From: an uncultured Verrucomicrobiota bacterium
GTDB taxonomy: Bacteria; Verrucomicrobiota; Verrucomicrobiia; Limisphaerales; UBA1412
Assembly (NCBI GenBank): GCA_944389455.1
Contig: CALXMK010000007.1
Span: 19,637-83,636, forward strand
Direction of reading: 5' to 3'
Length of the DNA: 64,000 nt
Positions 13,961-64,000 of this stretch are shown one piece after another (position 1 is the stretch's first letter; each line of letters begins with the position of its first letter). A program made the position numbers and the translations under genes. A model generated the notes under the pieces. It was not told the origin of the DNA. It ran no database searches and worked only from the letters and a program-made list of their open reading frames with translations.

Positions 13961-14509
13961 TTGAAAGAGGATCAACTGAAGACAAAGACTGAATTCTTTC
14001 TCCATCCAGAGGAGGAAGAGGAGGATTTGCCACAATGGATGTTGGCATGTGTTAAGCCTCGTTCTGAGAAAAAATTTGCTCAATATTGTTCAGAACGAAA
14101 TATTCAGTATTGTCTTCCTCTTTATAAAAGCATCAAAAAATATCCAAGGAAAAAGCTTATTTTCTATAAACCTTGTTTTCCTGGTTACGTTTTTCTTTAT
14201 ACGAAGGAGAAGAACCGTATTAACCTATACCAATCCTTCTATTTACTCAAGTTGATTAAAATAAAGAATCAGAAATTGTTTATCAATCAATTAGAATCTA
14301 TCCTATTAGCAATTGAATCTGGGGTGGAACTAATTCCTGCCAAAGAGTTTAAACCAGGAACAATTGTTCAGATTTGTCGGGGTCCTATGCAGGGAATTGT
14401 AGGAGTTATTCAGAAGATAAAAGGAACTTGTATGGTTTATTTGAGTATTGATTTTATTTCTCGGGGAGTATTAGTGGAAGTGGATATAGATAATATTGAG
14501 AGCCTGTAG
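13961..14509 (+). CDS. NusG paralogue (UpxY/RfaH/LoaP-like antiterminator)
   Basis: NGN domain (WMLACVKPRSEKK...LP...PCFPGYVF) plus KOW (PGTIVQICRGPMQGIVG); TTG start. Confidence 0.85.
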   Translation: MKEDQLKTKTEFFLHPEEEEEDLPQWMLACVKPRSEKKFAQYCSERNIQYCLPLYKSIKKYPRKKLIFYKPCFPGYVFLYTKEKNRINLYQSFYLLKLIKIKNQKLFINQLESILLAIESGVELIPAKEFKPGTIVQICRGPMQGIVGVIQKIKGTCMVYLSIDFISRGVLVEVDIDNIESL

Positions 14510-14512
14510 ATG

Positions 14513-15253
14513 TTATTTTTTTATAGGACGACGGCGTAATCCATTTTCAAAAAGTAAAACCCACACTCGGTAAACTGCCTCTAGAACAATACGAAATGAC
14601 ATTTTAGAGGTGCCATTTTGACGATCTGTAAAAGTGATGGGATGTTCCGTGACTTTTAATCCCTGGCGCCAAATTTTATGAGTCATTTCAATTTGAAAAC
14701 TATAACCATTGGAGCGGATGGCATCCAAGTCAATAGAAGCAAGGGTATTCCGTCGAAAACATTTGAATCCTCCAGTTGGGTCTGAAAATGGCATTCCTGT
14801 AATAATTCTAACATATTTACCTGCACCGATGCTAAGTATTAGTCGATTTAGCGGCCAGTTAATAACTCGAATTCCTCCTTTATATCGAGTCCCTAAAACT
14901 AGATCGGAATTCTTTGCTAATTGAATAAGTTTGGGTAAATCTTCTGGGTCATGAGAAAAATCAGCATCCATCTCACAGATGTATTCATAGCCATGTTCTA
15001 ATGCCCATTTGAATCCGCAACAGTAAGCTCTCCCGAGGCCATCTTTTACAGAACGATGAAGAACATACATCCTTTCAGGTGCTTGTCGAGCCAGTTCGTC
15101 TGCCAACTCTCCAGTGCCGTCGGGAGAATTGTCATCGACAATTAGCAAATCGATAGAGTATGAAAGAGAAAATATTTTTTTGCTGATCTTTACAATATTT
15201 TCTCGTTCGTTATAGGTGGGGATGATAACTAAAGCTTTTTCAGCAGTATTCAC
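14513..15253 (-). CDS. Polyprenol monophosphomannose synthase-like GT2
   Basis: IIPTYNEREN, VDDNSPDGTG, EMDADFSHDP, NGYSFQIE; GTG start. Confidence 0.9.
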   Translation of the reverse strand: MNTAEKALVIIPTYNERENIVKISKKIFSLSYSIDLLIVDDNSPDGTGELADELARQAPERMYVLHRSVKDGLGRAYCCGFKWALEHGYEYICEMDADFSHDPEDLPKLIQLAKNSDLVLGTRYKGGIRVINWPLNRLILSIGAGKYVRIITGMPFSDPTGGFKCFRRNTLASIDLDAIRSNGYSFQIEMTHKIWRQGLKVTEHPITFTDRQNGTSKMSFRIVLEAVYRVWVLLFENGLRRRPIKK

Positions 15254-15255
15254 AA

Positions 15256-15939
15256 TTAATATTCAGATTCGTCTTCAGCTTTTACACTGCTGACCCAGGA
15301 AACACCATCAAGAGAACGGATATGATTTAAAAGTTCATTGGTACGATTGGGATCTCTCATTAAAAGCCGATATGAGAGATCCATACCTTGAACTCCATCA
15401 ACAGTTCTCTGGCTGGCAATAGTTGTTTTGGAACTATATCGATTGAGTAAGTTCAATAAAGTAGGAAGATCTGTGTCTGTTTTATCCCAGTGAAGGTTAA
15501 GGACTAAGTCGTAGCGGTTGCGGGATCCAAAAGAGGTCAGAGAAATATAAAAGAGAATAGTTAACGCAGCTAGTGTACCGATAATAACTGTAGTGTATTT
15601 TTGGGTTCCACTGGCCATACCGATGAAAAGTGTGCAAAGAATATAAACAGTGTCCAGAGTGTCTCGTAAGACGTTTCGGAAACGTACGATTGCAAATACA
15701 GCCATCATTCCAAAGGCTGTAACCAGATTGTTATCCAGCACTGTCATGACTAACGCGGTTAAAACAGGAATGACTAATAGCGCACTGACAAAAGTTCTGG
15801 AATAGGACATTCCAGAATGTGTTTTAATGTAGCAAAGTGCTAAAGCATGCCCACATAGAAACGCAAGAAGTATCGAAAGAATGAGAGCAAAAACATTTGT
15901 AGGGGTTGGAGCAACATCTCCAAAAAGTAACCAATCCAT
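15256..15939 (-). CDS. DUF4956-like membrane protein
   Basis: Several TM helices, AIVRFRN motif, soluble C-terminal domain; follows VTC gene as is typical for this family. Confidence 0.8.
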   Translation of the reverse strand: MDWLLFGDVAPTPTNVFALILSILLAFLCGHALALCYIKTHSGMSYSRTFVSALLVIPVLTALVMTVLDNNLVTAFGMMAVFAIVRFRNVLRDTLDTVYILCTLFIGMASGTQKYTTVIIGTLAALTILFYISLTSFGSRNRYDLVLNLHWDKTDTDLPTLLNLLNRYSSKTTIASQRTVDGVQGMDLSYRLLMRDPNRTNELLNHIRSLDGVSWVSSVKAEDESEY

Positions 15940-15957
15940 ATTAAAATCCTGATTCTA

Positions 15958-16791
15958 TTATTTATTTAAGAGACGTTTTATTTCTTCTAAATTCATAGGT
16001 GTTGGTTGCCAATTATTGATTTGAGGCAGAGGCAGATCAAGAGACTTGGATGATGTAAACATTTTGTCTTCGCCTAAAGCAATAATTCCTTCACAATATT
16101 TAGCAGCACCGGTCTGTGCCAAACCGAAGGTTTCAACAAGTTCTCTAAACCAATGGGGAAAACGCCCTGTAAATTTCAGTTCTAAAATGACGTGTTTAGC
16201 AAGTTCTGTTGATGTAGAGCGCGAACGATCGGCTTTGAGATTAAGAGATAGTTCTCGTTCTGCACTGACAGCACGATCAAAAGTAAGACGAACAGAGTTG
16301 TTTTCTTTGGTAACCCATGCTTCACGTAGATATGAAATATGGACTTTAGGCTTAGCATGGAGAGATCTGGTCAAATAAACAAAGTTCTGAAGTGACTGAA
16401 GACTTTTGGCGTCATTTTTAATCATGAATTCAGGACGGATATTACCCCGTAAGGCGTCTTCGACATATTCCCGTTTGATCCCAGCACGTTGTTTCATAAT
16501 ACAGTAATTAAGTCTGCGCTTAATTTCAAAAAAGACAGGACTCTGCTCATTATAAAACCTAAGTCTGAGTTTAAATCGGTTTTTAGTGCCGTTAATTGTT
16601 CCCCAATAGAGTCTCAGATCATCAGAATCAAGATAATGACTGTGAATAACATAGGAGTTATTCGGTTTGCCTACAGCATATTCATCTAATTCTAGATAGC
16701 TGCTGGCAAAAGCTCGTATGCCCAAAGCAACCTCTTCATTGATGAGGTACTTTAGCTCAAAACGTTGTTGTTGCATTTTGTCTTCAGACAT
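15958..16791 (-). CDS. VTC-domain (polyphosphate polymerase-like, CYTH superfamily) protein
   Basis: RFELKY, YLDS, RFKLRLRFY, FFEIKRR, YLREAW, RLTFD, ILELKF, KYCEG. Confidence 0.88.
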   Translation of the reverse strand: MSEDKMQQQRFELKYLINEEVALGIRAFASSYLELDEYAVGKPNNSYVIHSHYLDSDDLRLYWGTINGTKNRFKLRLRFYNEQSPVFFEIKRRLNYCIMKQRAGIKREYVEDALRGNIRPEFMIKNDAKSLQSLQNFVYLTRSLHAKPKVHISYLREAWVTKENNSVRLTFDRAVSAERELSLNLKADRSRSTSTELAKHVILELKFTGRFPHWFRELVETFGLAQTGAAKYCEGIIALGEDKMFTSSKSLDLPLPQINNWQPTPMNLEEIKRLLNK

Positions 16792-16917
16792 TGTCTAATC
16801 CCTTTCGTTGAGAAGCAAAAATGCTCCAAAAAAAAATTCTACTTCAGAATATTATATCTGTCCAGTCAATACTCTATTGCCTTGAGAATGTTGTCTCACT
16901 CTGCAAAATAAAGTATT

Positions 16918-16935
16918 AAGCAAACTACATGCCAA
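16918..16935 (-). promoter_or_regulatory. Putative sigma54 (-24/-12) promoter for VTC operon
   Basis: Minus strand TTGGCATGTAGTTTGCTT: exact GG-N10-GC spacing, about 125 nt upstream of the VTC ATG. Confidence 0.6.
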
Positions 16936-16984
16936 ATTGTTTTTTTAAATTTTTAATCGAGAAAAATAGGGAGATTAAGTTGTG

Positions 16985-17479
16985 TCAAAATTGCTGTTTT
17001 TTGGCTAGCCGTCGTTCACGAAAAAATTTCTGGATTATTTGTCGAGCTTCTTCTTCTTTTACTTTGGAAGTAATATCGCAACGATGATTTAGGGTAGGAA
17101 ACTGGAGGATATTCATAGCAGAACCAGCTGCTCCTGCTTTGGGGTCAGAGAGAGCAAAGACAACTCTCTTTATTCGAGTATGAGAGATTGCTCCTGCGCA
17201 CATGGGACATGGTTCTTTAGTAACATAGAGAATGCAATCGGTTAAACGCCAATCACCTAAAGTAGATTGAGCTGCAGTTAAGGCTATCATTTCAGCATGA
17301 GCTGTAGCATCTTTAAGGGTTTCAACTTGGTTAAAACCTTTACCGATAATGTGATTATTGTGAACGATAATAGCTCCAATAGGTGTTTCTCCCAATGAAT
17401 ATGCTTTGAGGGATAGCCTTAAAGCTAACTCCATGTAGTATTCGTCGTTATTGGAATCAATGATTGATGAAGCAGTCAT
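16985..17479 (-). CDS. tadA: tRNA adenosine(34) deaminase
   Basis: HAE and EPCPMC Zn motifs, DPKAGA. Confidence 0.92.
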   Translation of the reverse strand: MTASSIIDSNNDEYYMELALRLSLKAYSLGETPIGAIIVHNNHIIGKGFNQVETLKDATAHAEMIALTAAQSTLGDWRLTDCILYVTKEPCPMCAGAISHTRIKRVVFALSDPKAGAAGSAMNILQFPTLNHRCDITSKVKEEEARQIIQKFFRERRLAKKQQF

Positions 17480-35054: not shown

Positions 35055-36674
35055 ATGAAAAATAAGGCAAAGGTTACTCCCAAAATTTCTTCTAGAAGTA
35101 GATCTCTTTTTCATCTCTTACATGGAGGAATGACAGCTCCAGAGCGTCTTATTCCATTAATCATAGTATTAGTTACCACAATGCTTTTTGTAGTGAGGCT
35201 TTCTGGTCCTCCAAATTTAATAGATAATGATCAGGAACGGCCAGCTTCATATGTATTAGATGTTGTTAAAAATGGTCATTGGATTTATCAGACAGATGAG
35301 TTAGGTGATATTGCATCTAAGCCTCCTCTTTATACATGGCTTTCGGCGATTTCTACTTATTTAATGGGACAGGGGAAAATTAGTTTATTGACGCTTTACC
35401 TGCCGTGTTATTTGTCAATAGTGGGAATTGGGCTTCTTCTTTATTTTTGTGGTCGGAGGTCATTTGGAGTGTATGCGGCAGGATTGGGAGCAATGGTATT
35501 TATTATTTCTCCGATGGCAATGAAGCAGGTAGCTCTTGCTCGTACTGACGCACTTTTTACTTTTACAGTTACGCTTTCTGCTTTTATCGGATATTGGTGC
35601 TGGCAGCGAGGTAAAGGGTGGATTTGGTTTTGGATTGGAGTATCTTTGGCCGGGCTGACAAAGGGGCCTTTGGGATTGCTTTTGGCAAGTGGAGGTTTTT
35701 TTAGTTTTATTTGGAATAAAAAAAGTAAAGAGGCTCCGCTTAATCAAAGAAGTATTTCACCTAAAGTTCTTTTAGGAATATGTGTGTTTTTTGCAATAGT
35801 AGGCGGATGGTTTTTGCTAGCTTTTTTTGAGGGAGGAGATGCTCTTTATGAGAAGATTATCAGATCTGAATTAATGGATCATGCAGTTTCTAAAACTTAT
35901 GGTATTCCCGGCGCTGGATTTATATTAACGCCATTTTATCTTGTAACTCGTTTCTTGCCATGGAGTTTAATTGGGGTTTGGGCGATTATAGATGTGTTTA
36001 GACACCCTGCTCAAGAGGAGAATGCTCGCAGACTAGAGAGATTTTTGGTTTGTTGGATCTTATTTGGTTGTTTTGTAATGGCTTTGGGAACCCATCAACG
36101 GGGAGATTTGATTTTTCCTATGGTTCCGCCTTTGGCACTTCTAACGGGAAGAGTTTTAGAAAAAGGTTGGCCGGTGACGTTGAAAGAGAACCCAATGACT
36201 TTTTTAAAAGGGATATCAGTTTTGGCTGCCGTAGGGATTACGATTATTCTTTGCTATAATCGGTTTGTCTTTTCTAAACAAGAGGTGACCTATCGGACTA
36301 AAGCGTTGGAGCGTGCTTCTCAGAATATTCTTAATGCAGGGATCGATTTGAAGTCTTTGAAATATTTTCAGGTTCCTTTTACTTTGCAATTTTATTTGAA
36401 TACAATGACATATGCTACAAAGGAAGAGGATGTAAGAGCTTTTTTTGAATCTGATTTACCAAGTTGTTTAGCAGTAAGTGATTTGGAGAATCTTAAAAAG
36501 GCTCTGGGACCTAAATCTCCTCCTTATAGAGTAATGTTTTGTTGGTATTTAGATAACGAACCTTTCCTTTATATATTAAATAATAATGCGTGGAGTAAAG
36601 AGGCGGAATCTTTGAATAGCTCAAGTTGGTATTTTAATTCTAAGACAATTTATGATGAACCCCAAGTTCGTTAG
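35055..36674 (+). CDS. ArnT/PMT-like (GT-C) lipid-phosphate-sugar-dependent glycosyltransferase
   Basis: Multi-pass membrane protein, DQER, KPPLYTWL, RTD, LTKGPLG, FLPWS. Confidence 0.8.
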   Translation: MKNKAKVTPKISSRSRSLFHLLHGGMTAPERLIPLIIVLVTTMLFVVRLSGPPNLIDNDQERPASYVLDVVKNGHWIYQTDELGDIASKPPLYTWLSAISTYLMGQGKISLLTLYLPCYLSIVGIGLLLYFCGRRSFGVYAAGLGAMVFIISPMAMKQVALARTDALFTFTVTLSAFIGYWCWQRGKGWIWFWIGVSLAGLTKGPLGLLLASGGFFSFIWNKKSKEAPLNQRSISPKVLLGICVFFAIVGGWFLLAFFEGGDALYEKIIRSELMDHAVSKTYGIPGAGFILTPFYLVTRFLPWSLIGVWAIIDVFRHPAQEENARRLERFLVCWILFGCFVMALGTHQRGDLIFPMVPPLALLTGRVLEKGWPVTLKENPMTFLKGISVLAAVGITIILCYNRFVFSKQEVTYRTKALERASQNILNAGIDLKSLKYFQVPFTLQFYLNTMTYATKEEDVRAFFESDLPSCLAVSDLENLKKALGPKSPPYRVMFCWYLDNEPFLYILNNNAWSKEAESLNSSSWYFNSKTIYDEPQVR

Positions 36675-40919: not shown

Positions 40920-41939
40920 TTATTTAATATCAACCCAAAGTGCACGAAATGTTCTTTCTTCCAAAGGCAACTCTTTATTTTCTAAAGCCCCTATTTCTAA
41001 GCTGCCGTCATCACTGATAACTAAGAGTTTATTGGGGAAATATTCTTGAGATGCTAAAATCACTTCGGCTGTAAAGTTTTTAGGGAATTCCTTAATCATT
41101 ATTTTGGGAGGATTGGATTGATTCCCATCCCACGAATAAAGTGCACATGAACCTTTATCATAAGGTCCTGCTATGATGTAATAACGATTTCCACTAAAGC
41201 ACATATCGCGAATTCCTAAGCCTCCGAGATCAAGGACCGTAGCATCACCAAAGGTGGGAGCTTTCCCTTTAATAACTTCAGATGGATTTTTTAGAGGGAT
41301 GAGTAGTGCTTTTCCATCAGGAATAGGATTGCGGAAGCAAATCCAGAGACTCCCATCCGGAGCAGCAGATAATCCCTCAATATTAAAGCCATTTGGAGCT
41401 TTAGGTGCCAATAATGAGGCTGATGACAAATTGTATTTTTTAAACTTTTCTTCTTTTAAAAGAGCTGTTTGTATTCCCTGAAATGGAATACCTGTGACTT
41501 TGAGACTTTGATTTGCATCGTTGATTTGAGTTGCAAAGAAGATATGCCGTGAGGGTTGAGCTTTACCATTCTTGTTTCTCCCATGAGAGCTGATCCAATA
41601 GATTGTATCGTCAATTCTGGCTGCGCCTTCTAAATCGAATTCTTTTTTACCTTTAATTCCCGCCAGTTCCGTTCGAATGGAAAGAATTTTAGTGGGTTTA
41701 CCTCCGTCCAGTGAATAGAGGCGAAGTCCGTCTTCTTCATCATCGGCAATTAGTGCCTTAATTCCATTGGATTTATCTCCAATAATGACTCCGGCAGAGG
41801 CATCAGAGATGCCAGAAAAGCGAATATAATCGATTTCTTTGTCACTGGAAATGTCTGCTGCTATTCCTAGAGTTGAGACCATTGAGGTTAAAATAAATAA
41901 ATAAGCAATACTTGTTTTTTTGAAAAATTTCTTTTTCAT
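40920..41939 (-). CDS. Exported DUF3616-like protein
   Basis: Signal peptide; DASAG, ADDE, DLEGAA, SSHGR, NIEGL, FRNP, DLGGLGIRD, ISDDG. Family assignment from memory of motifs. Confidence 0.7.
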   Translation of the reverse strand: MKKKFFKKTSIAYLFILTSMVSTLGIAADISSDKEIDYIRFSGISDASAGVIIGDKSNGIKALIADDEEDGLRLYSLDGGKPTKILSIRTELAGIKGKKEFDLEGAARIDDTIYWISSHGRNKNGKAQPSRHIFFATQINDANQSLKVTGIPFQGIQTALLKEEKFKKYNLSSASLLAPKAPNGFNIEGLSAAPDGSLWICFRNPIPDGKALLIPLKNPSEVIKGKAPTFGDATVLDLGGLGIRDMCFSGNRYYIIAGPYDKGSCALYSWDGNQSNPPKIMIKEFPKNFTAEVILASQEYFPNKLLVISDDGSLEIGALENKELPLEERTFRALWVDIK

Positions 41940-41954
41940 AATGTTATAATAATT

Positions 41955-41971
41955 AGCAAGAAATATGCCGA
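41955..41971 (-). promoter_or_regulatory. Putative sigma54 promoter for DUF3616-like gene
   Basis: Minus strand TCGGCATATTTCTTGCT, GG-N10-GC; very AT-rich upstream region. Confidence 0.5.
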
Positions 41972-44744: not shown

Positions 44745-44761
44745 CTGGCACAGTTTGTGCT
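44745..44761 (+). promoter_or_regulatory. Sigma54-like motif or palindromic operator
   Basis: CTGGCACAGTTTGTGCT: TGGCAC-N5-GTGC (one mismatch to TTGC); also the inverted repeat GCACA-N3-TGTGC. Confidence 0.4.
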
Positions 44762-59411: not shown

Positions 59412-62400
59412 TCATTTTATTGTTCTATACATCAGGATCGGAAAATCGTTTTTGAGTAAATAAGGTGAAACTGCATCAGGAATATTTTCCCAATGAATTA
59501 GATTAGTACTGCATTGAAGATTACCGGTAAACACAAGATAAAAATTTCCGTTTTCGTTCTGAAGCAGAACTTCTGGAGGGAATTCTTGCTTTGGATTATA
59601 AAAAATATCGGTTCCCTGTTCGTAGTTTATAGCGGCTTCTTCCTCAGAAATTGTTCCTTGGTAAATTCTAAATTCATCGAAATCCCCACAAAAATAGGGA
59701 TCTGCTGCAAATTGAGATTTACCGATCCACATATTGGGGCAACCACCAAATTGAGTTGGATTGAATTCTTGAAAATCTTCTCCAGCTTTATTGCCGTCAA
59801 TATAAATGGTACCTAGTTGAGTAGCACTGTCATATGTATAAATGATATGGTGAAATACGCCGTCTCCTATTGGAAGGGAAGCTGCAGATACAATTTGTTC
59901 AATATTATTCACACGAACTCCATTTCGCATATCACCATTATCCGAGGCCCAAGTCATCATACTGTACTGTAGCCCTTCCACAATTTGTCCATCACTTTCC
60001 CTACAGTTGCCAAAGTCAAATAGACGCATCCAACTGCCTTTGTTTTTATTGGCTCTCACCCACATTTCAACAGTAAAAGAGTCAAAGTTACTGATTAAAT
60101 CCGGGGGAAGAGCGACAAAAGATCCTTCTGTATAAGATTTCTGATCGCCTTCTCCATCTAGTGATAAGATGTTTCTGGAAACAGAGTTTTCAGTTATTTC
60201 AGAAAGCTTGGCATTCCCATATAGAGTTCCATGGGCTTCTGATATTGAATCAAATATGATAAGAGTATTATCTAAGAACGCCGGGGAAAAATTGTAACGA
60301 TGTTTGAGGGTAGCATTTTTATATTTTATTATCTCTTTTACAGTTAATTGAATATGCTTGCTCGAAATTTCTCCATATTTATTAGCGATTTTTACATAAT
60401 AATATCCGGAATTACTGATTGCAGCAGGATCAATTGTCAGTGTGGCGTTTGTTTCTCCAAAGAGAGGAGAATTGTTTTTATGCCATTGGTATGTTAAAGG
60501 TTGGATTCCTGAAGCCTTTACAGAGAAGATAGCTGTGCTCCCTTCGTAGGTTGCTATATCCTCACTAATAGATTCAATGAAAGGTTTTCGACTATCAGGA
60601 ATAATGTCTGTTCCAGCAAGATAATTTTTGTGGATTTCATCAGCTAAGAGGGTGCCGCTGTAAATACGAAATTCATCGAAATCTCCGGCGAAATACGGAT
60701 CAGCACCCCACAATGATTTGCCTATCCACATATTGGTCATAGAACCGAATTGAGAAGGAGAAAATCTTTGTAGACCACTTGCTGCTTCAATTCCGTTTGT
60801 ATAGAGAGTCCCCATTTTATTATTTCCATCATATACATAGACAATATGGTAAAAATTTCCATCTCCAATTGGAAGTAGAGGGGCAGTGAGTTGATCTTCT
60901 TCATTTTCAATTCTTACTCCGCTGCAGAGGTAGTGATCGTGTCCTTTCCATGCAAGCATAGTATAATTATGACCAGTATCGATATTACCATTTGAGTGTG
61001 TATTGCAATTGCCAAAATCAAATAGTCTCATCCAATTTCCTTTATCTTCATTAGCTCTTGCCCACATTTCAATACTATATGAATGATATGGACTAATTAG
61101 ATTTGGAGGCAATGCAACAAAGGAGCCATTTGTAAAGGAATAGGTATCACCTATGCCATCAAGTCTTAGATAACCATTTTGTATATAAGCAGATCCATAA
61201 AGTTTTCCGTTTGCTTGGTTGATAGAGTCATATGCAATGAGCTGATCTTCGACAAAATTTTCATTGAAGCTGTAACGATGAAGCAGTATGGCATTTTTAA
61301 AAATGGGAAGAGGTTCTATTGTTAAAAGTATTTCGTTACTGCTAATAGTTCCCTTCAGATTGGAAAGAGTAACAGTATAGACTCCTTCATCCTCTAATGA
61401 AGCACATTCGATTGAGTAATAAGAATTGGTGGCATCCGGAATTGGAATTTCGTCTTTATACCATTGATATTTTATGGGAAGGGAGCTGGAGGCTATGATT
61501 TCTAATAAAATAGGTTTACCTTCTGTAACGGATAGATTTTTAGGGGAGGAGATAATTTCGGGAAGGAAAATGACTGGAGGATCGTCTTCTCCATTTATGC
61601 CAGTTCCAGGAGTGCCACCTATAAACAAACTTTGTTTCCAATTTTCAGGAGTACTCCATAAGGACATGGCAGAAGCCGGATCTATTACAGTAAGAGAATA
61701 TCCCTGGCGGTCTGTGGAAGGATACCAACTGTTGCTGTAGGTATAAGTAAGGATTACTTCTCCAATATTGTTGCAGAGGGTAATGGTTTCACCTTTTCTC
61801 GATAAGTTGGACTTATATTCTCCACGAATATATATATCATTGCTATTGGGATAGCGTTTTGCAAATGCTTCTGTATTTTTAACTAAAACAAGATATTCAC
61901 CAGCTCTCAGAGGAGTATCAGGGAATATATAGTCGATTCCTGAAGTAAATCGACACCCTTTTAAGTTGATGGATTCTTCTCCACAGTTTCTAAATTCAAT
62001 CCATGCGAAATCATCTTGAGTATATCCCTCAGCAGATTCTTCCTCAGAAAGATTAGCTGAGTACATCATTTCTGTAATTCTTAGTTTTGAACAATCATAA
62101 TTATCATTTTCTCTCGGATTAAATTCACTTAGAGCACTCCAGACTCCATTATTAAGAGTTCTGGCCATTAGATGAGTATCGTCAGATAGGATAATTGAGC
62201 CTGTTTTCCAATGAGTAGGATCTTTTTGAGCGGTAATGGAAATATCGAATCCAGAGTTGCTGTCAGTATCAATTGTGACAAGATTTCTCCCTTGACGTAA
62301 GGTATTAAGTGGAATTTTCCCAGGAGTCGTAATAATCCCGTTGATCGAAATGGTTCCTATTCCTTTAATTACAGATAGAGTTGCAGATTTTATATCATCT

Positions 62401-64000
62401 ATTGTATCTAACACAAATGACTTACGCAGGTAACAATGAGAGGAAGTAAATCCCAAGGCTGGCTTTTTGATTTCCCATTGGTAGTCATTATAGAGGCGAT
62501 CTGTCCAGTAGACTTCAGAGTAATTCCTCTGGGGATCTGGAGGCACATTACTAGGATAGCATTTCCATTCAGAATCTGGTGAGATGAGAGTAATTTCTTC
62601 AGACGTTTTGGAAATCGTTTGCATATGAAGTTCCAGAGCTGCTGAATTCAATCCCCCGCCTGGCAGGCGAGGGTCACTTCCATTACGAGTGTAATAAACA
62701 GGTGAATCGGCTTTTATTATAGCAATGTTATTCTGCAGTTCTATAGACGGAGGATTAATATCAGGATACCAATTGTATTTTTTTAAGAGAGAAATCATCT
62801 CATATTCACGGCCTACTAAGAAAGCGTCTGTAACAAGGTGTAATGCTGATTTCCATGTTTCATAAGTATATCCACCTCCAAATTGATTTCCCCAGCGAGC
62901 AGATTCAGCAACAATAGGGTTGTCTAATTTCTTTTCGCGTGAATTCCATCTGTTAATGACATTAGTGAATGAAAGAGCTCCATTATTGAGATAATGTTTG
63001 GTTGCTCTATCAATAAATTTGTAATAGTACTCTGGATGATTTATGAGTCTTCTATGTAGATCCATTGGATTAAAATCTTCCCATCTAGACCAATAAGAGG
63101 AATTTTTGAAATAGTCGATAGAGTCTTCAATTCCTAGATGTGCTCCCAAAGTTAATTCTGCATCATGTTTTAACCATTTAAATCCCTCTGGCGCAGAACG
63201 ATGATAAACAGCGCTTACATTATTTACTACATTAATCCAAGAGAGGGGGGAATCCATATCTGCTGTATAGAGGGTAAGGAGGATATAATCAATTAGATTT
63301 TCCTCATCTAGCAGAATAGGGAGTTCTTCATTCAATGTTCCATCCGGATTCATGCCTTTTACTTTCCAATAGTTGTTTTCATTCATTCCGCTGAATCCCT
63401 GAAGAGCATATTGATAAAATTGTTTATATGCATCTTCAGTGCCATCTTTAATTTCAATAACTCGCTGACTGGAAGATTTGAGAGCATCCCATTCTTCGCT
63501 TGTGCCGCCTAGATATGATGAGGCAAAATCCGCTTCAGCGCGTTCTTGTGTCATATAAAGTCCCCAATAGACCCCATTGATATAGACATGATGATAGCGG
63601 CTTCGGGTGTAAAGATTTCCCATGTCTCCCTGAGAATCTCTTGCAAATACTTCACGGATAAAAGTGTTTTGCCAGGGAGAATCAACGTTGGAAGACCAGG
63701 CGTTATTTTGTTCTGTTCTCAGATCGATCTTACTGAATGTGCTGACTCCTTCGGATTCGAAAAGAGGGAAGTTTAAATTCCCCTCATATTTTGAACCGAA
63801 GATTAGCCGCAGTGATTTTTTAGGAGAGGCTCGTCCAACGGCACCGCGAATACGAACTCCTGCATTAATTTCAAAATTAGTATTACTTTTAGGGTCAATG
63901 TATTCCACAGAAATAGGGCGTTCCCATTGTTCTCCAGATTGATTATAGTTATCGAAGATACCGGTTTGACCATATAAATTGGAAGAATCGGTTGAAAGAG
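59412..64000 (-). CDS. Very large surface protein, 5'-truncated by window edge: CotH-like kinase, lamin-tail domain, two Ig-LamG modules, C-terminal tail
   Basis: Frame is open from 63998 (LSTDSSNLYGQTGIFDNYNQSGEQWERPISVEY), so the track start 63908 (GTG) is internal. CotH-like INGVYWGLYMTQER and WLKHDAE; LTD-like ITEMMY..WIEFRN; duplicated Ig-LamG. Confidence 0.85.
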   Translation of the reverse strand, partial: LSTDSSNLYGQTGIFDNYNQSGEQWERPISVEYIDPKSNTNFEINAGVRIRGAVGRASPKKSLRLIFGSKYEGNLNFPLFESEGVSTFSKIDLRTEQNNAWSSNVDSPWQNTFIREVFARDSQGDMGNLYTRSRYHHVYINGVYWGLYMTQERAEADFASSYLGGTSEEWDALKSSSQRVIEIKDGTEDAYKQFYQYALQGFSGMNENNYWKVKGMNPDGTLNEELPILLDEENLIDYILLTLYTADMDSPLSWINVVNNVSAVYHRSAPEGFKWLKHDAELTLGAHLGIEDSIDYFKNSSYWSRWEDFNPMDLHRRLINHPEYYYKFIDRATKHYLNNGALSFTNVINRWNSREKKLDNPIVAESARWGNQFGGGYTYETWKSALHLVTDAFLVGREYEMISLLKKYNWYPDINPPSIELQNNIAIIKADSPVYYTRNGSDPRLPGGGLNSAALELHMQTISKTSEEITLISPDSEWKCYPSNVPPDPQRNYSEVYWTDRLYNDYQWEIKKPALGFTSSHCYLRKSFVLDTIDDIKSATLSVIKGIGTISINGIITTPGKIPLNTLRQGRNLVTIDTDSNSGFDISITAQKDPTHWKTGSIILSDDTHLMARTLNNGVWSALSEFNPRENDNYDCSKLRITEMMYSANLSEEESAEGYTQDDFAWIEFRNCGEESINLKGCRFTSGIDYIFPDTPLRAGEYLVLVKNTEAFAKRYPNSNDIYIRGEYKSNLSRKGETITLCNNIGEVILTYTYSNSWYPSTDRQGYSLTVIDPASAMSLWSTPENWKQSLFIGGTPGTGINGEDDPPVIFLPEIISSPKNLSVTEGKPILLEIIASSSLPIKYQWYKDEIPIPDATNSYYSIECASLEDEGVYTVTLSNLKGTISSNEILLTIEPLPIFKNAILLHRYSFNENFVEDQLIAYDSINQANGKLYGSAYIQNGYLRLDGIGDTYSFTNGSFVALPPNLISPYHSYSIEMWARANEDKGNWMRLFDFGNCNTHSNGNIDTGHNYTMLAWKGHDHYLCSGVRIENEEDQLTAPLLPIGDGNFYHIVYVYDGNNKMGTLYTNGIEAASGLQRFSPSQFGSMTNMWIGKSLWGADPYFAGDFDEFRIYSGTLLADEIHKNYLAGTDIIPDSRKPFIESISEDIATYEGSTAIFSVKASGIQPLTYQWHKNNSPLFGETNATLTIDPAAISNSGYYYVKIANKYGEISSKHIQLTVKEIIKYKNATLKHRYNFSPAFLDNTLIIFDSISEAHGTLYGNAKLSEITENSVSRNILSLDGEGDQKSYTEGSFVALPPDLISNFDSFTVEMWVRANKNKGSWMRLFDFGNCRESDGQIVEGLQYSMMTWASDNGDMRNGVRVNNIEQIVSAASLPIGDGVFHHIIYTYDSATQLGTIYIDGNKAGEDFQEFNPTQFGGCPNMWIGKSQFAADPYFCGDFDEFRIYQGTISEEEAAINYEQGTDIFYNPKQEFPPEVLLQNENGNFYLVFTGNLQCSTNLIHWENIPDAVSPYLLKNDFPILMYRTIK

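Follow-up and report, generated by a model that had tools for sequence, protein, structure and literature searches.

A probable sigma-54-controlled VTC-DUF4956 operon of Limisphaerales, rearranged in one genus with a passenger glycosyltransferase gene

What brings a VTC-domain protein, a DUF4956 protein and a polyprenol-phosphate glycosyltransferase together in a single compact gene unit, and does the third gene share the function of the first two? The question is raised by a 64,000-nt stretch of DNA (the window, in what follows) from a gut-type verrucomicrobium of the order Limisphaerales. As the preliminary description had stated, the open reading frame list of the window contains three minus-strand genes in a tight, co-oriented unit with gaps of exactly 18 and 2 nt:

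16791..15958, minus strand: VTC gene (277 aa; Pfam PF09359, E 3.9e-40)
15939..15256, minus strand: DUF4956 gene (227 aa; Pfam PF16316, E 1e-10)
15253..14513, minus strand: DPM1-like GT2 gene (246 aa, GTG start; Pfam Glycos_transf_2, PF00535, E 6e-27)

Upstream of the unit lie tadA, a GT2 gene, galT and galK, and downstream a NusG-like gene; no pel genes were noticed among the genes flanking the operon in the window. The VTC-DUF4956(-CotH) gene set is widespread. The literature found mentions it solely in connection with Gram-positive pel loci, where cotH, a VTC polyphosphate-polymerase gene and a DUF4956 gene are accessory genes (Whitfield 2020, PMC7112168; SIR_1592-1594 of S. intermedius, PMC12345266). 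S. intermedius mutants of DUF4956 (SIR_1592) and CotH (SIR_1594) were reduced in Pel and aggregation, phenotypes that were reported for these genes only (PMC12345266). According to the same 2025 paper, the trio does not occur outside pel loci (PMC12345266), a statement contradicted by the Limisphaerales survey and the Balneolales operon described below.

The VTC protein consists of nothing but the tunnel domain and is a triphosphate tunnel metalloenzyme (TTM) resembling the catalytic domain of Vtc4. Its family profile matches the yeast Vtc4 catalytic domain (3g3q, E 1.2e-13), and the protein contains neither an SPX domain nor a Vtc1-type transmembrane channel. The basic and acidic residues of the tunnel, including the catalytic lysine, are present, and K14, R76, R78, K91, E204 and K206 were found to be invariant in 17 orthologues. 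On our reading of the alignment, K14 would correspond to the lysine of the Vtc4 RQTTKY motif (K200), and R76/R78 to R264/R266. Neither PPK1 nor PPK2 was found in the genome assembly, which is 93% complete, so that this absence is provisional. We know of no bacterial VTC protein that has been assayed enzymatically.

The DUF4956 protein is predicted to reside in the inner membrane, with a helical membrane domain followed by a C-terminal ACT-like domain. In its AF2 model (pLDDT 77.6), helices occupy residues 16-135 and a beta-alpha-beta-beta-alpha-beta domain residues 144-220. A weak match to MgtC/SapB was observed (2.9e-4), and Foldseek searches with the model returned weak ACT-domain matches only; the membrane domain had no Foldseek/PDB match, and homology to a channel therefore cannot be claimed. 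The protein is about 60% identical even to its Balneolales homologues.

These properties bear on one alternative that we regard as rather unlikely, although worth weighing, namely that the VTC protein acts as a hydrolase or signalling enzyme of the triphosphate-tunnel type, with the DUF4956 protein as an MgtC-like regulator, the pair adjusting phosphate or ATP homeostasis, or signalling to the envelope, with no export of a polymer. Within the TTM superfamily, triphosphatases and cyclases share these tunnel residues, and both the MgtC-like topology and the ACT-like domain of DUF4956 suit a regulator. The action of MgtC on ATP synthase and PhoR, as cited in PMC12345266, points the same way, as does the restriction of the S. 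intermedius phenotypes to DUF4956 and CotH mutants (PMC12345266). However, among solved structures the VTC protein is closest to the Vtc4 polymerase domain and not to a triphosphatase, no PPK1 or PPK2 was found in the assembly, and the conserved partner of the pair, described below, is a periplasmic adaptor of the export-machine type, for which a purely cytoplasmic regulator would have no need.

How is the unit transcribed? Three elements were located upstream of the VTC gene:

16934..16919, minus strand: sigma-54 -24/-12 element TGGCATGTAGTTTGCT, agreeing at 11/11 defined positions with TGGCAC-N5-TTGCW
16792..16908, minus strand: predicted 5' untranslated leader, 117 nt, from the promoter position
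16864..16836, minus strand: sigma-70-like candidate second promoter TGGACA-17-TAGAAT, 10/12 consensus, inside the leader, a pattern match only

The minus-strand string TTGGCATGTAGTTTGCTT (16935..16918) spans the -24/-12 element. The exact GG-N10-GC spacing that had been reported before the operon was confirmed, with GG at 16933-16932 and GC at 16921-16920, positions that predict a +1 near 16908 and hence a 5' UTR of about 117 nt. Within the window, the only exact match to TGGCAY-N5-TTGCW is this element; in the 2.62-Mb genome, five exact matches were counted against 4.3 expected. The exact motif taken alone is thus not beyond chance, but its position is: three of the five matches fall in intergenic sequence no more than 150 nt ahead of a start on the same strand, a class that makes up 3.0% of strand-positions (P=2.7e-4). 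The element is kept at -135..-143 in all three operon-carrying congeners, in which the upstream gene and flanking sequence differ, and GG-N10-GC is retained in four genomes of the genus despite diverged flanks. Order-wide, 24 of the 78 related loci have a motif of at least 10/11 in the 400 nt before VTC, compared with 0.7 expected from a background rate of 0.0086 per 400 nt (P~1e-30). Every one of these is a VTC-DUF4956 locus, and the motif is missing from all 21 VTC-alone loci; such a strong motif within 400 nt is present in only 24/56 of the VTC-DUF4956 loci. The rpoN gene, which the preliminary description had named as a check, was found by profile search (TIGR02395, 405 bits, C22:18857-20296), together with three full enhancer-binding proteins (EBPs; Sigma54_activat, 235-241 bits), one of them an NtrC-type response regulator adjoining a PAS histidine kinase. 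With orthologous conservation, order-wide enrichment and the presence of rpoN and EBPs in its favour, the sigma-54-type promoter originally claimed for the VTC operon is well supported as genuine. The 10/11 motif matches at DnaK and some other genes look like chance.

The leader was found to be of similar length in relatives (about 110-190 nt), and its fold is mildly to moderately stable (z = -2.2). An Rfam scan of 14400..17100 matched no family, so that the 117-nt leader contains no known riboswitch. In some relatives, the leaders carry 11-bp-phased direct repeats of GTGAC(G/A)AT, which are absent from the window and the genus. Repeats phased in this way are typical of OmpR/PhoB-type regulators, and their occurrence in those relatives would also suit a role of the pair in homeostasis or signalling.

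The sigma-70-like candidate in the leader allows the proposal that the sigma-54-like element is inactive and that the operon is transcribed from 16864..16836, which we judge improbable. Congeners have TTGCCA-18-TATGCT at the equivalent place in their leaders, constitutive expression is required for a core gene like GT2, and the exact sigma-54 consensus is not over-represented in the genome, as noted above. Sigma-70 pattern matches, however, are no more frequent in the region than in shuffled sequence, nine against 9.1, and an inactive sigma-54 element sits poorly with GG-N10-GC kept among diverged flanks and with the enrichment across the order. It also sits poorly with the perfect sigma-54 motif of a relocated gene of the system, the adaptor gene considered next. 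The two promoters working together would be more likely than the sigma-70-like promoter alone; the latter may provide basal expression of the housekeeping GT2 gene.

Which gene normally occupies the third position? Neighbours of VTC were tallied by tblastn across 80 Limisphaerales loci. The common pairing of VTC with DUF4956 that had been described holds order-wide, the pair being kept in 58/80 loci, whereas the survey of GT2 versus CotH as third gene that the preliminary description had suggested came out in favour of neither: GT2 is third in two loci, both of this genus, and CotH lies within 8 kb of VTC in none (0/80). The usual third gene encodes an EmrA/HlyD-type periplasmic adaptor (44 loci); in the remainder, another gene (7), a contig end (5) or VTC alone (21) was found. 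The adaptor is a true EmrA/MacA/AcrA-class protein (EmrA profile, E 3e-15; AF2 pLDDT 82; Foldseek E 1e-15). Its orthologue in the present genome lies elsewhere:

G000 C4:130341-131429: adaptor orthologue, with one of the five exact sigma-54 matches 34 nt in front of it

The adaptor promoter has an 11/11 sigma-54 motif in all seven congeners, that is, in 8/8 genomes including this one, and in the single closed congener genome VTC and the adaptor are about 100 kb apart. A candidate enhancer site for the adaptor promoters is a TTTTTCTGGACA-like block lying about 70 nt before them; a search for an enhancer site (UAS) common to both the adaptor and the VTC promoter failed to define one, the only shared element, a reverse-complement 8-mer, being unconvincing. 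In Balneolales, VTC, DUF4956, the adaptor and LTD/CotH form one contiguous operon. That operon lacks the sigma-54 motif, so that not every form of the module is under sigma-54 control.

The gene that stands third here encodes the catalytic domain only of a GT2 enzyme, a GT-A domain with DXD and without a membrane anchor. Its best solved relative is the P. furiosus dolichol-phosphate mannose synthase 5mlz (E 5.9e-34, MDAD aligned), followed by ArnC (1e-11); the NCBIfam models AglJ and PpgS matched below their cut-offs, and no equivalog model reached its cut-off. In line with the assignment as a polyprenol-phosphate-sugar synthase made at the outset, the protein is classified, by homology, as a DPM1-like polyprenol-phosphate hexose synthase. 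A GT-C enzyme that could use such a product had been noted in the window, along with a CotH protein, and both are present as described:

35055..36674, plus strand: PMT_2-type GT-C glycosyltransferase (PF13231, E 5.9e-12)
59412..63908, minus strand: secreted CotH + LTD + Ig + LamG protein (1498 aa; Pfam CotH 1.6e-17, LTD, Ig, Laminin_G_3)

On this basis, VTC, DUF4956 and GT2 could constitute one inducible envelope-modification pathway, in which phosphotransfer or polyphosphate chemistry feeds the synthesis of a lipid-phosphate sugar with which the GT-C enzyme glycosylates surface CotH/LTD proteins. The 2-nt gap and GTG start leave no room for a promoter and are kept in the window and three congeners, GT2 stands exactly at the usual position of the adaptor, the genome encodes a PMT_2-type GT-C as well as CotH proteins, and neither VTC nor GT2 is found in four incomplete congener assemblies, the same four for both genes, as fits physical linkage. 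Yet this linkage is limited to one genus (2/80 loci), and GT2 is unlinked to VTC outside it. GT2 was found as a single-copy core gene in 33/34 genera, among them 12 VTC-less genomes, and its conservation (60-72% identity) exceeds that of VTC (45-55%). Each family has different neighbours around it, none of them conserved, and GT2 shows no phyletic association with VTC (Fisher p=1) or, across 33 families, with CotH (p=1). The single pathway is accordingly a poor prospect, and the proposed tie of the pair to lipid-carrier glycosylation of the surface is left unsupported by the genus-limited linkage and housekeeping status of GT2. The alternative offered at the same time, a chance neighbour, is the better reading: GT2 appears to be a housekeeping gene and a passenger, having landed in the operon only in this genus. 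Here it is very probably co-transcribed with VTC-DUF4956. From family knowledge, the GT-C enzyme is a plausible user of the lipid-linked sugar that GT2 would produce; it has no relation to the VTC pair.

The preliminary description had also noted that bacterial VTC-DUF4956 pairs often lie beside CotH-kinase genes. Such adjacency was not found in the survey, and the nearest CotH gene in the window, one of about nine CotH-domain genes in the genome, is 43 kb from the operon; no sigma-54 promoter was found for this copy (59412..63908), the only nearby match lying inside the ORF. Across 33 families, VTC and CotH nevertheless co-occur (2 x 2 table [[21,0],[3,9]], p=5.7e-6), and sigma-54 motifs conserved in congeners precede the genes of a 4xLTD secreted protein and a giant LTD-LamG-CotH protein; the motif of the CotH giant is 10/11, with GG lost in one congener. 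A functional tie of VTC-DUF4956 to CotH proteins is thus backed by phyletic co-occurrence and a shared sigma-54 motif. Congeners also carry a separate CotH-DUF4956-VTC2 module.

Taken together, we consider it probable, from comparative sequence data, that the locus is a sigma-54 VTC-DUF4956 operon characteristic of Limisphaerales and rearranged in this genus with a passenger GT2. The ancestral unit would have consisted of a sigma-54 promoter, VTC, DUF4956 and the EmrA/HlyD-type periplasmic adaptor. In this genus, the adaptor gene would have moved away, retaining a sigma-54 promoter of its own, and the housekeeping DPM1-like GT2 gene would have taken the third position, where, 2 nt behind DUF4956, it should be read through from the upstream promoter or promoters, with a possible basal contribution from the sigma-70-like one. 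Parts that are contiguous in other phyla, as in Balneolales, would thus be dispersed here, yet tied as a sigma-54 regulon, which appears to include the 4xLTD secreted protein and the giant LTD-LamG-CotH protein. What the products do together can be proposed only tentatively: the VTC enzyme may dock on DUF4956 at the inner membrane and form, with the adaptor, an envelope-directed system serving secreted CotH/LTD proteins. That VTC makes polyphosphate which is threaded outward to donate phosphoryl groups is speculative and has little probability in our estimation. The full version of this idea, to which we give equally little credence, is a PPK-independent machine of Limisphaerales and other diderms in which a Vtc4-like polymerase on DUF4956 would pass polyphosphate through an EmrA-type adaptor to surface LTD/CotH kinases that use it instead of ATP, the parts forming a sigma-54 regulon here and VTC being the only recognisable polyphosphate synthase in the genome.

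The order-wide sigma-54 promoter offers a regulatory handle, implying induction by a specific signal through an EBP. The split operon amounts to a natural experiment: the presence of sigma-54 promoters on both operon halves, the LTD protein and the CotH protein argues that they work together, independently of gene adjacency. The hitch-hiking GT2 guards against over-reading operon membership in reduced genomes. Should VTC prove to be the sole polyphosphate synthase of a PPK-less bacterium, this would be of interest for polyphosphate biology.

How does the system compare with those already known? The accessory genes of Gram-positive pel loci include the same pair of VTC and DUF4956 (an MgtC-like membrane domain plus ACT) and show the same genomic and phyletic association with secreted CotH. 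Unlike those loci, the present one belongs to a diderm verrucomicrobium, and no pel genes were noticed in its flanks; CotH co-occurs, and seems to be co-regulated, without being adjacent, a periplasmic adaptor regularly takes the third place, and control is probably by sigma-54. In the yeast VTC complex (3g3q, 7ytj, 8i6v), the Vtc4 catalytic tunnel domain is joined to a membrane channel. Here the catalytic domain belongs to the same family, with the same tunnel residues, and a soluble polymerase-like domain is likewise tied, genetically, to a small membrane protein; in contrast to yeast, SPX is lacking, and DUF4956 is a separate polypeptide unrelated to the Vtc1-type transmembrane domain. The adaptor has the TM anchor, lipoyl domain, long alpha-hairpin and beta-barrel of tripartite efflux adaptors (EmrA, MacA, AcrA, HlyD), with EmrA and MacA as top matches in structure and profile searches, whereas no MFS, ABC or RND pump gene lies alongside, and in relatives DUF4956 is the sole membrane protein next to it. 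Finally, GT2 shares the GT2 fold and DAD motif with P. furiosus DPMS (5mlz, the match extending over the catalytic domain), eukaryotic DPM1 and the catalytic domain of mycobacterial Ppm1. It differs from archaeal DPMS in having no C-terminal membrane domain, and in that respect resembles the DPM1 type, which needs a separate membrane anchor.

The window carries, on the minus strand, the genes for VTC (a Vtc4-like triphosphate tunnel protein), its membrane-protein neighbour DUF4956 and a GT2 glycosyltransferase. Open reading frames and Pfam matches agree with the gene identities and the exact gaps of 18 nt (VTC/DUF4956) and 2 nt (DUF4956/GT2) in the preliminary description, and the CotH and GT-C genes cited elsewhere in the window are as it described them.

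16935..16918, minus: sigma-54 element TTGGCATGTAGTTTGCTT, GG at 16933-16932, GC at 16921-16920
16864..16836, minus: sigma-70-like site TGGACA-17-TAGAAT, within the VTC leader
16791..15958, minus: VTC, 277 aa (PF09359, E 3.9e-40)
15939..15256, minus: DUF4956 gene, 227 aa (PF16316, E 1e-10)
15253..14513, minus: GT2 gene, 246 aa, GTG start (Glycos_transf_2, E 6e-27)
59412..63908, minus: CotH + LTD + Ig + LamG protein, 1498 aa
35055..36674, plus: PMT_2-type GT-C, the GT-C gene cited earlier

The locus is a variant of the known, uncharacterised VTC-DUF4956 module. Its assembly, G000, comprises 2.62 Mb (41% GC, 93% complete); genomes in most other families of Limisphaerales (Pedosphaerales) measure 4-8 Mb. 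A NusG paralogue (13961..14509, plus; UpxY/LoaP-like, scoring under family cut-offs) converges on GT2 with stop codons 3 nt apart, a pairing kept across the genus.

Is the operon controlled by sigma-54? Taken alone, the motif count in G000 is unremarkable, with five exact TGGCAY-N5-TTGCW matches observed and 4.3 expected. Three of the five are intergenic and precede a same-strand start by at most 150 nt, a space covering 3.0% of strand-positions (P=2.7e-4). Relative to the VTC start codon, the three operon-carrying congeners keep GG-N10-GC at -135 to -143; the sequence around the element has diverged among congeners, and the upstream gene differs too (tadA solely in G000). In Limisphaerales, 78 loci extend far enough upstream to be scored, and 24 of them have a match of at least 10/11 in the 400 nt before VTC (P~1e-30 against a background of 0.0086 per 400 nt). 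Each of these 24 is of the VTC-DUF4956 type, and the stand-alone VTC paralogue has no such match at any of its 21 loci. Sigma-54 control appears real because the position and conservation of the motif exceed chance, though its count does not. The exact element first noticed ahead of the operon is thus present, conserved in congeners and enriched order-wide, and the rpoN gene sought in the genome was found (405 bits), together with three full enhancer-binding proteins (EBPs). On this sequence evidence, assignment of the VTC operon to sigma-54 is supported, and we conclude that Limisphaerales share, as an order, predicted sigma-54 control of VTC-DUF4956. The GG/GC position predicts a +1 at ~16908 and a leader of 117 nt ahead of the VTC ATG at 16791.

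At the place equivalent to the sigma-70-like site, congeners have TTGCCA-18-TATGCT, and it is plausible that both promoters act jointly on the operon. The leaders of ten surveyed loci (L098, L091, L073, L077, L089, L090, L053, L055, L068 and L102) each contain two or three direct repeats of [G/T]TGAC[G/A]AT with an exact 11-bp period (e.g. TTGACAATcagGTGACGATaacGTGACGAT), at -63 to -120 from the VTC ATG. The 2.08 Mb surveyed contains 13 occurrences, every one of them upstream of VTC-DUF4956. The array, downstream of the sigma-54 element, looks like a candidate binding site for an OmpR/PhoB-type response regulator; none was found in the window or its genus.

The third gene was surveyed at 80 related loci with 8-kb flanks, scored by tblastn. 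An HlyD-like protein follows VTC-DUF4956 at 44 loci, something else at 7 and a contig end at 5; VTC stands alone at 21 and at a contig end at 1. Of the two third genes proposed earlier, GT2 occurs at 2 loci, both within the window's genus, and a CotH domain lies within 8 kb of VTC at 0/80. GT2 is single-copy in 33/34 genera, better conserved than VTC (60-72% versus 45-55% identity), and found in 12 VTC-less genomes; outside the window's genus it lies elsewhere in the genome. Its neighbours differ in every family, and across 33 other families it shows no association with VTC (p=1). Among solved structures, GT2 is nearest to dolichol-phosphate mannose synthase from Pyrococcus furiosus (5mlz, catalytic domain, E 5.9e-34), with ArnC second; GT2 of the window lacks the membrane domain of the 5mlz enzyme. 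GT2 is best read as the general polyprenol-phosphate hexose synthase of the cell, plausibly supplying GT-C enzymes such as 35055..36674, and as a probable housekeeping gene that is third in the operon solely within this genus. Co-transcription with VTC-DUF4956 is very likely because the 2-nt gap is conserved in congeners, which need not mean a shared pathway. Given the variable neighbours, core distribution and genus-limited linkage of GT2, the proposed coupling of the module to lipid-carrier glycosylation is not supported; the alternative of a chance neighbour, also raised in the preliminary description, is preferable and fits its genus-only third position and single-copy status. Four congeners (G002, G003, G006 and G007; 63-74% complete) were observed to lack both type-A VTC and the near-universal GT2, and all four have the adaptor; the whole three-gene unit could have been lost, or a systematic binning gap could be responsible.

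The profile of the HlyD-like family matches EmrA (4tko, E 3e-15) and LipC. The AF2 model (pLDDT 82) has a TM anchor, lipoyl domain, long alpha-hairpin and beta-barrel, with EmrA, MacA, AcrA and MexA as top Foldseek matches (E 1e-15 to 1e-10), and identifies the protein as a genuine periplasmic adaptor. In G000, the adaptor and two other genes lie behind sigma-54 motifs away from VTC, and a congener has a second module:

G000 C4:130341-131429: adaptor orthologue, start 34 nt behind TGGCATATTTATTGCT, one of the five exact matches
G000 C4:91421-93754: 4xLTD secreted protein, behind an intergenic, correctly oriented motif
G000 C14:1329-7418: 5xLTD + 2xLamG + CotH protein, 2029 aa, behind an intergenic, correctly oriented motif
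L167:5597-9384 (congener G004:C40), minus: CotH (777 aa) - DUF4956 (226 aa) - VTC2 (237 aa, 75 bits to PF09359)

Next after the adaptor gene come genes encoding a membrane protein (GYF/DUF4190) and a DUF2752 protein; in 7/7 congeners the adaptor gene is kept, with an 11/11 motif in the same position. VTC and adaptor are 100 kb apart in a closed congener genome. The promoter on both separated halves and this distance demonstrate the division of a putative ancestral sigma-54 operon in this genus, with predicted sigma-54 promoters retained on both halves. An NtrC-type EBP response regulator, encoded alongside corA and a PAS histidine kinase gene at C4:121587-126373 (L149:587-5373), ~4 kb from the adaptor operon, is a candidate regulator; beside this set is the gene for a multi-pass membrane protein of 620 aa that has no Pfam match.

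The motif of the 4xLTD gene is kept as GG-N10-GC in four congeners and that of the CotH giant in 2/3. Limisphaerales show a strong expansion of CotH-domain genes, with as many as 43 Pfam matches in one genome and 9 in G000; many of the encoded proteins are 1000-3000 aa long and contain LTD and LamG domains. Among the 33 other families, CotH genes occur in every VTC-bearing genome, in up to 43 copies, and are absent from 9/12 VTC-less genomes (Fisher p=5.7e-6). The classical CotH-DUF4956-VTC2 module is present in G001, G003, G004, G006 and G007 and missing from G000 and G005. In Balneolales, VTC, DUF4956, adaptor and an LTD/CotH protein with a T9SS tail are contiguous, and the VTC operon there has no sigma-54 motif.

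Three further motifs were observed. The gene for a secreted DUF3616 protein (40920..41939), a possible regulon member, is preceded at 16 nt by CGGCATATTTCTTGCT (41955..41970, minus; 10/11). TGGCACAGTTTGTGCT (44746..44761, plus; 10/11) is intergenic, with no same-strand gene in the next 2.5 kb. An exact motif at G000 C17:34249 (minus; C17:32478-36025, L150) precedes genes for a thioredoxin-like protein and an RND-type adaptor and is divergent from an EBP gene, the classic EBP/target layout.

The VTC family profile matches the catalytic domain of yeast Vtc4 (3g3q, E 1.2e-13), and the tunnel residues, including K91, E204 and K206, are invariant among 17 orthologues. By our own reading of the alignment, K14 would correspond to Vtc4 K200 and R76/R78 to R264/R266. 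The assembly, 93% complete, yielded no match to PPK1 (PF02503) or PPK2 (PF03976), so VTC is the sole recognisable polyphosphate-synthase candidate there. The DUF4956 model (pLDDT 77.6) combines a helical membrane domain (helices 16-135) with a C-terminal ACT-like domain; its PDB matches are weak and to ACT domains only, and the sequence matches MgtC/SapB weakly. DUF4956 is ~60% identical to homologues of another phylum.

Beyond the observed anatomy, synteny, promoter conservation, operon split and VTC-CotH co-occurrence, we tentatively propose that VTC, DUF4956 and the adaptor might form an envelope-directed system, induced through sigma-54 by an EBP, that would serve secreted LTD/CotH proteins. 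That its product would be polyphosphate, exported as a phosphoryl donor, is improbable; this step is weakened because, in S. intermedius, reduced Pel and aggregation were reported for DUF4956 and CotH mutants only (PMC12345266).

In print, the nearest description is that of an accessory gene set (cotH, polyP-polymerase and DUF4956) at Gram-positive pel loci (PMC7112168; PMC12345266). Unlike that set, the Limisphaerales module belongs to a diderm host, has a periplasmic adaptor as its regular partner, appears to be sigma-54 controlled and, in the window's genus, is dispersed into an apparent regulon. The cotH/VTC/DUF4956 trio was stated in 2025 to occur at pel loci only (PMC12345266), which is contradicted by the present case.
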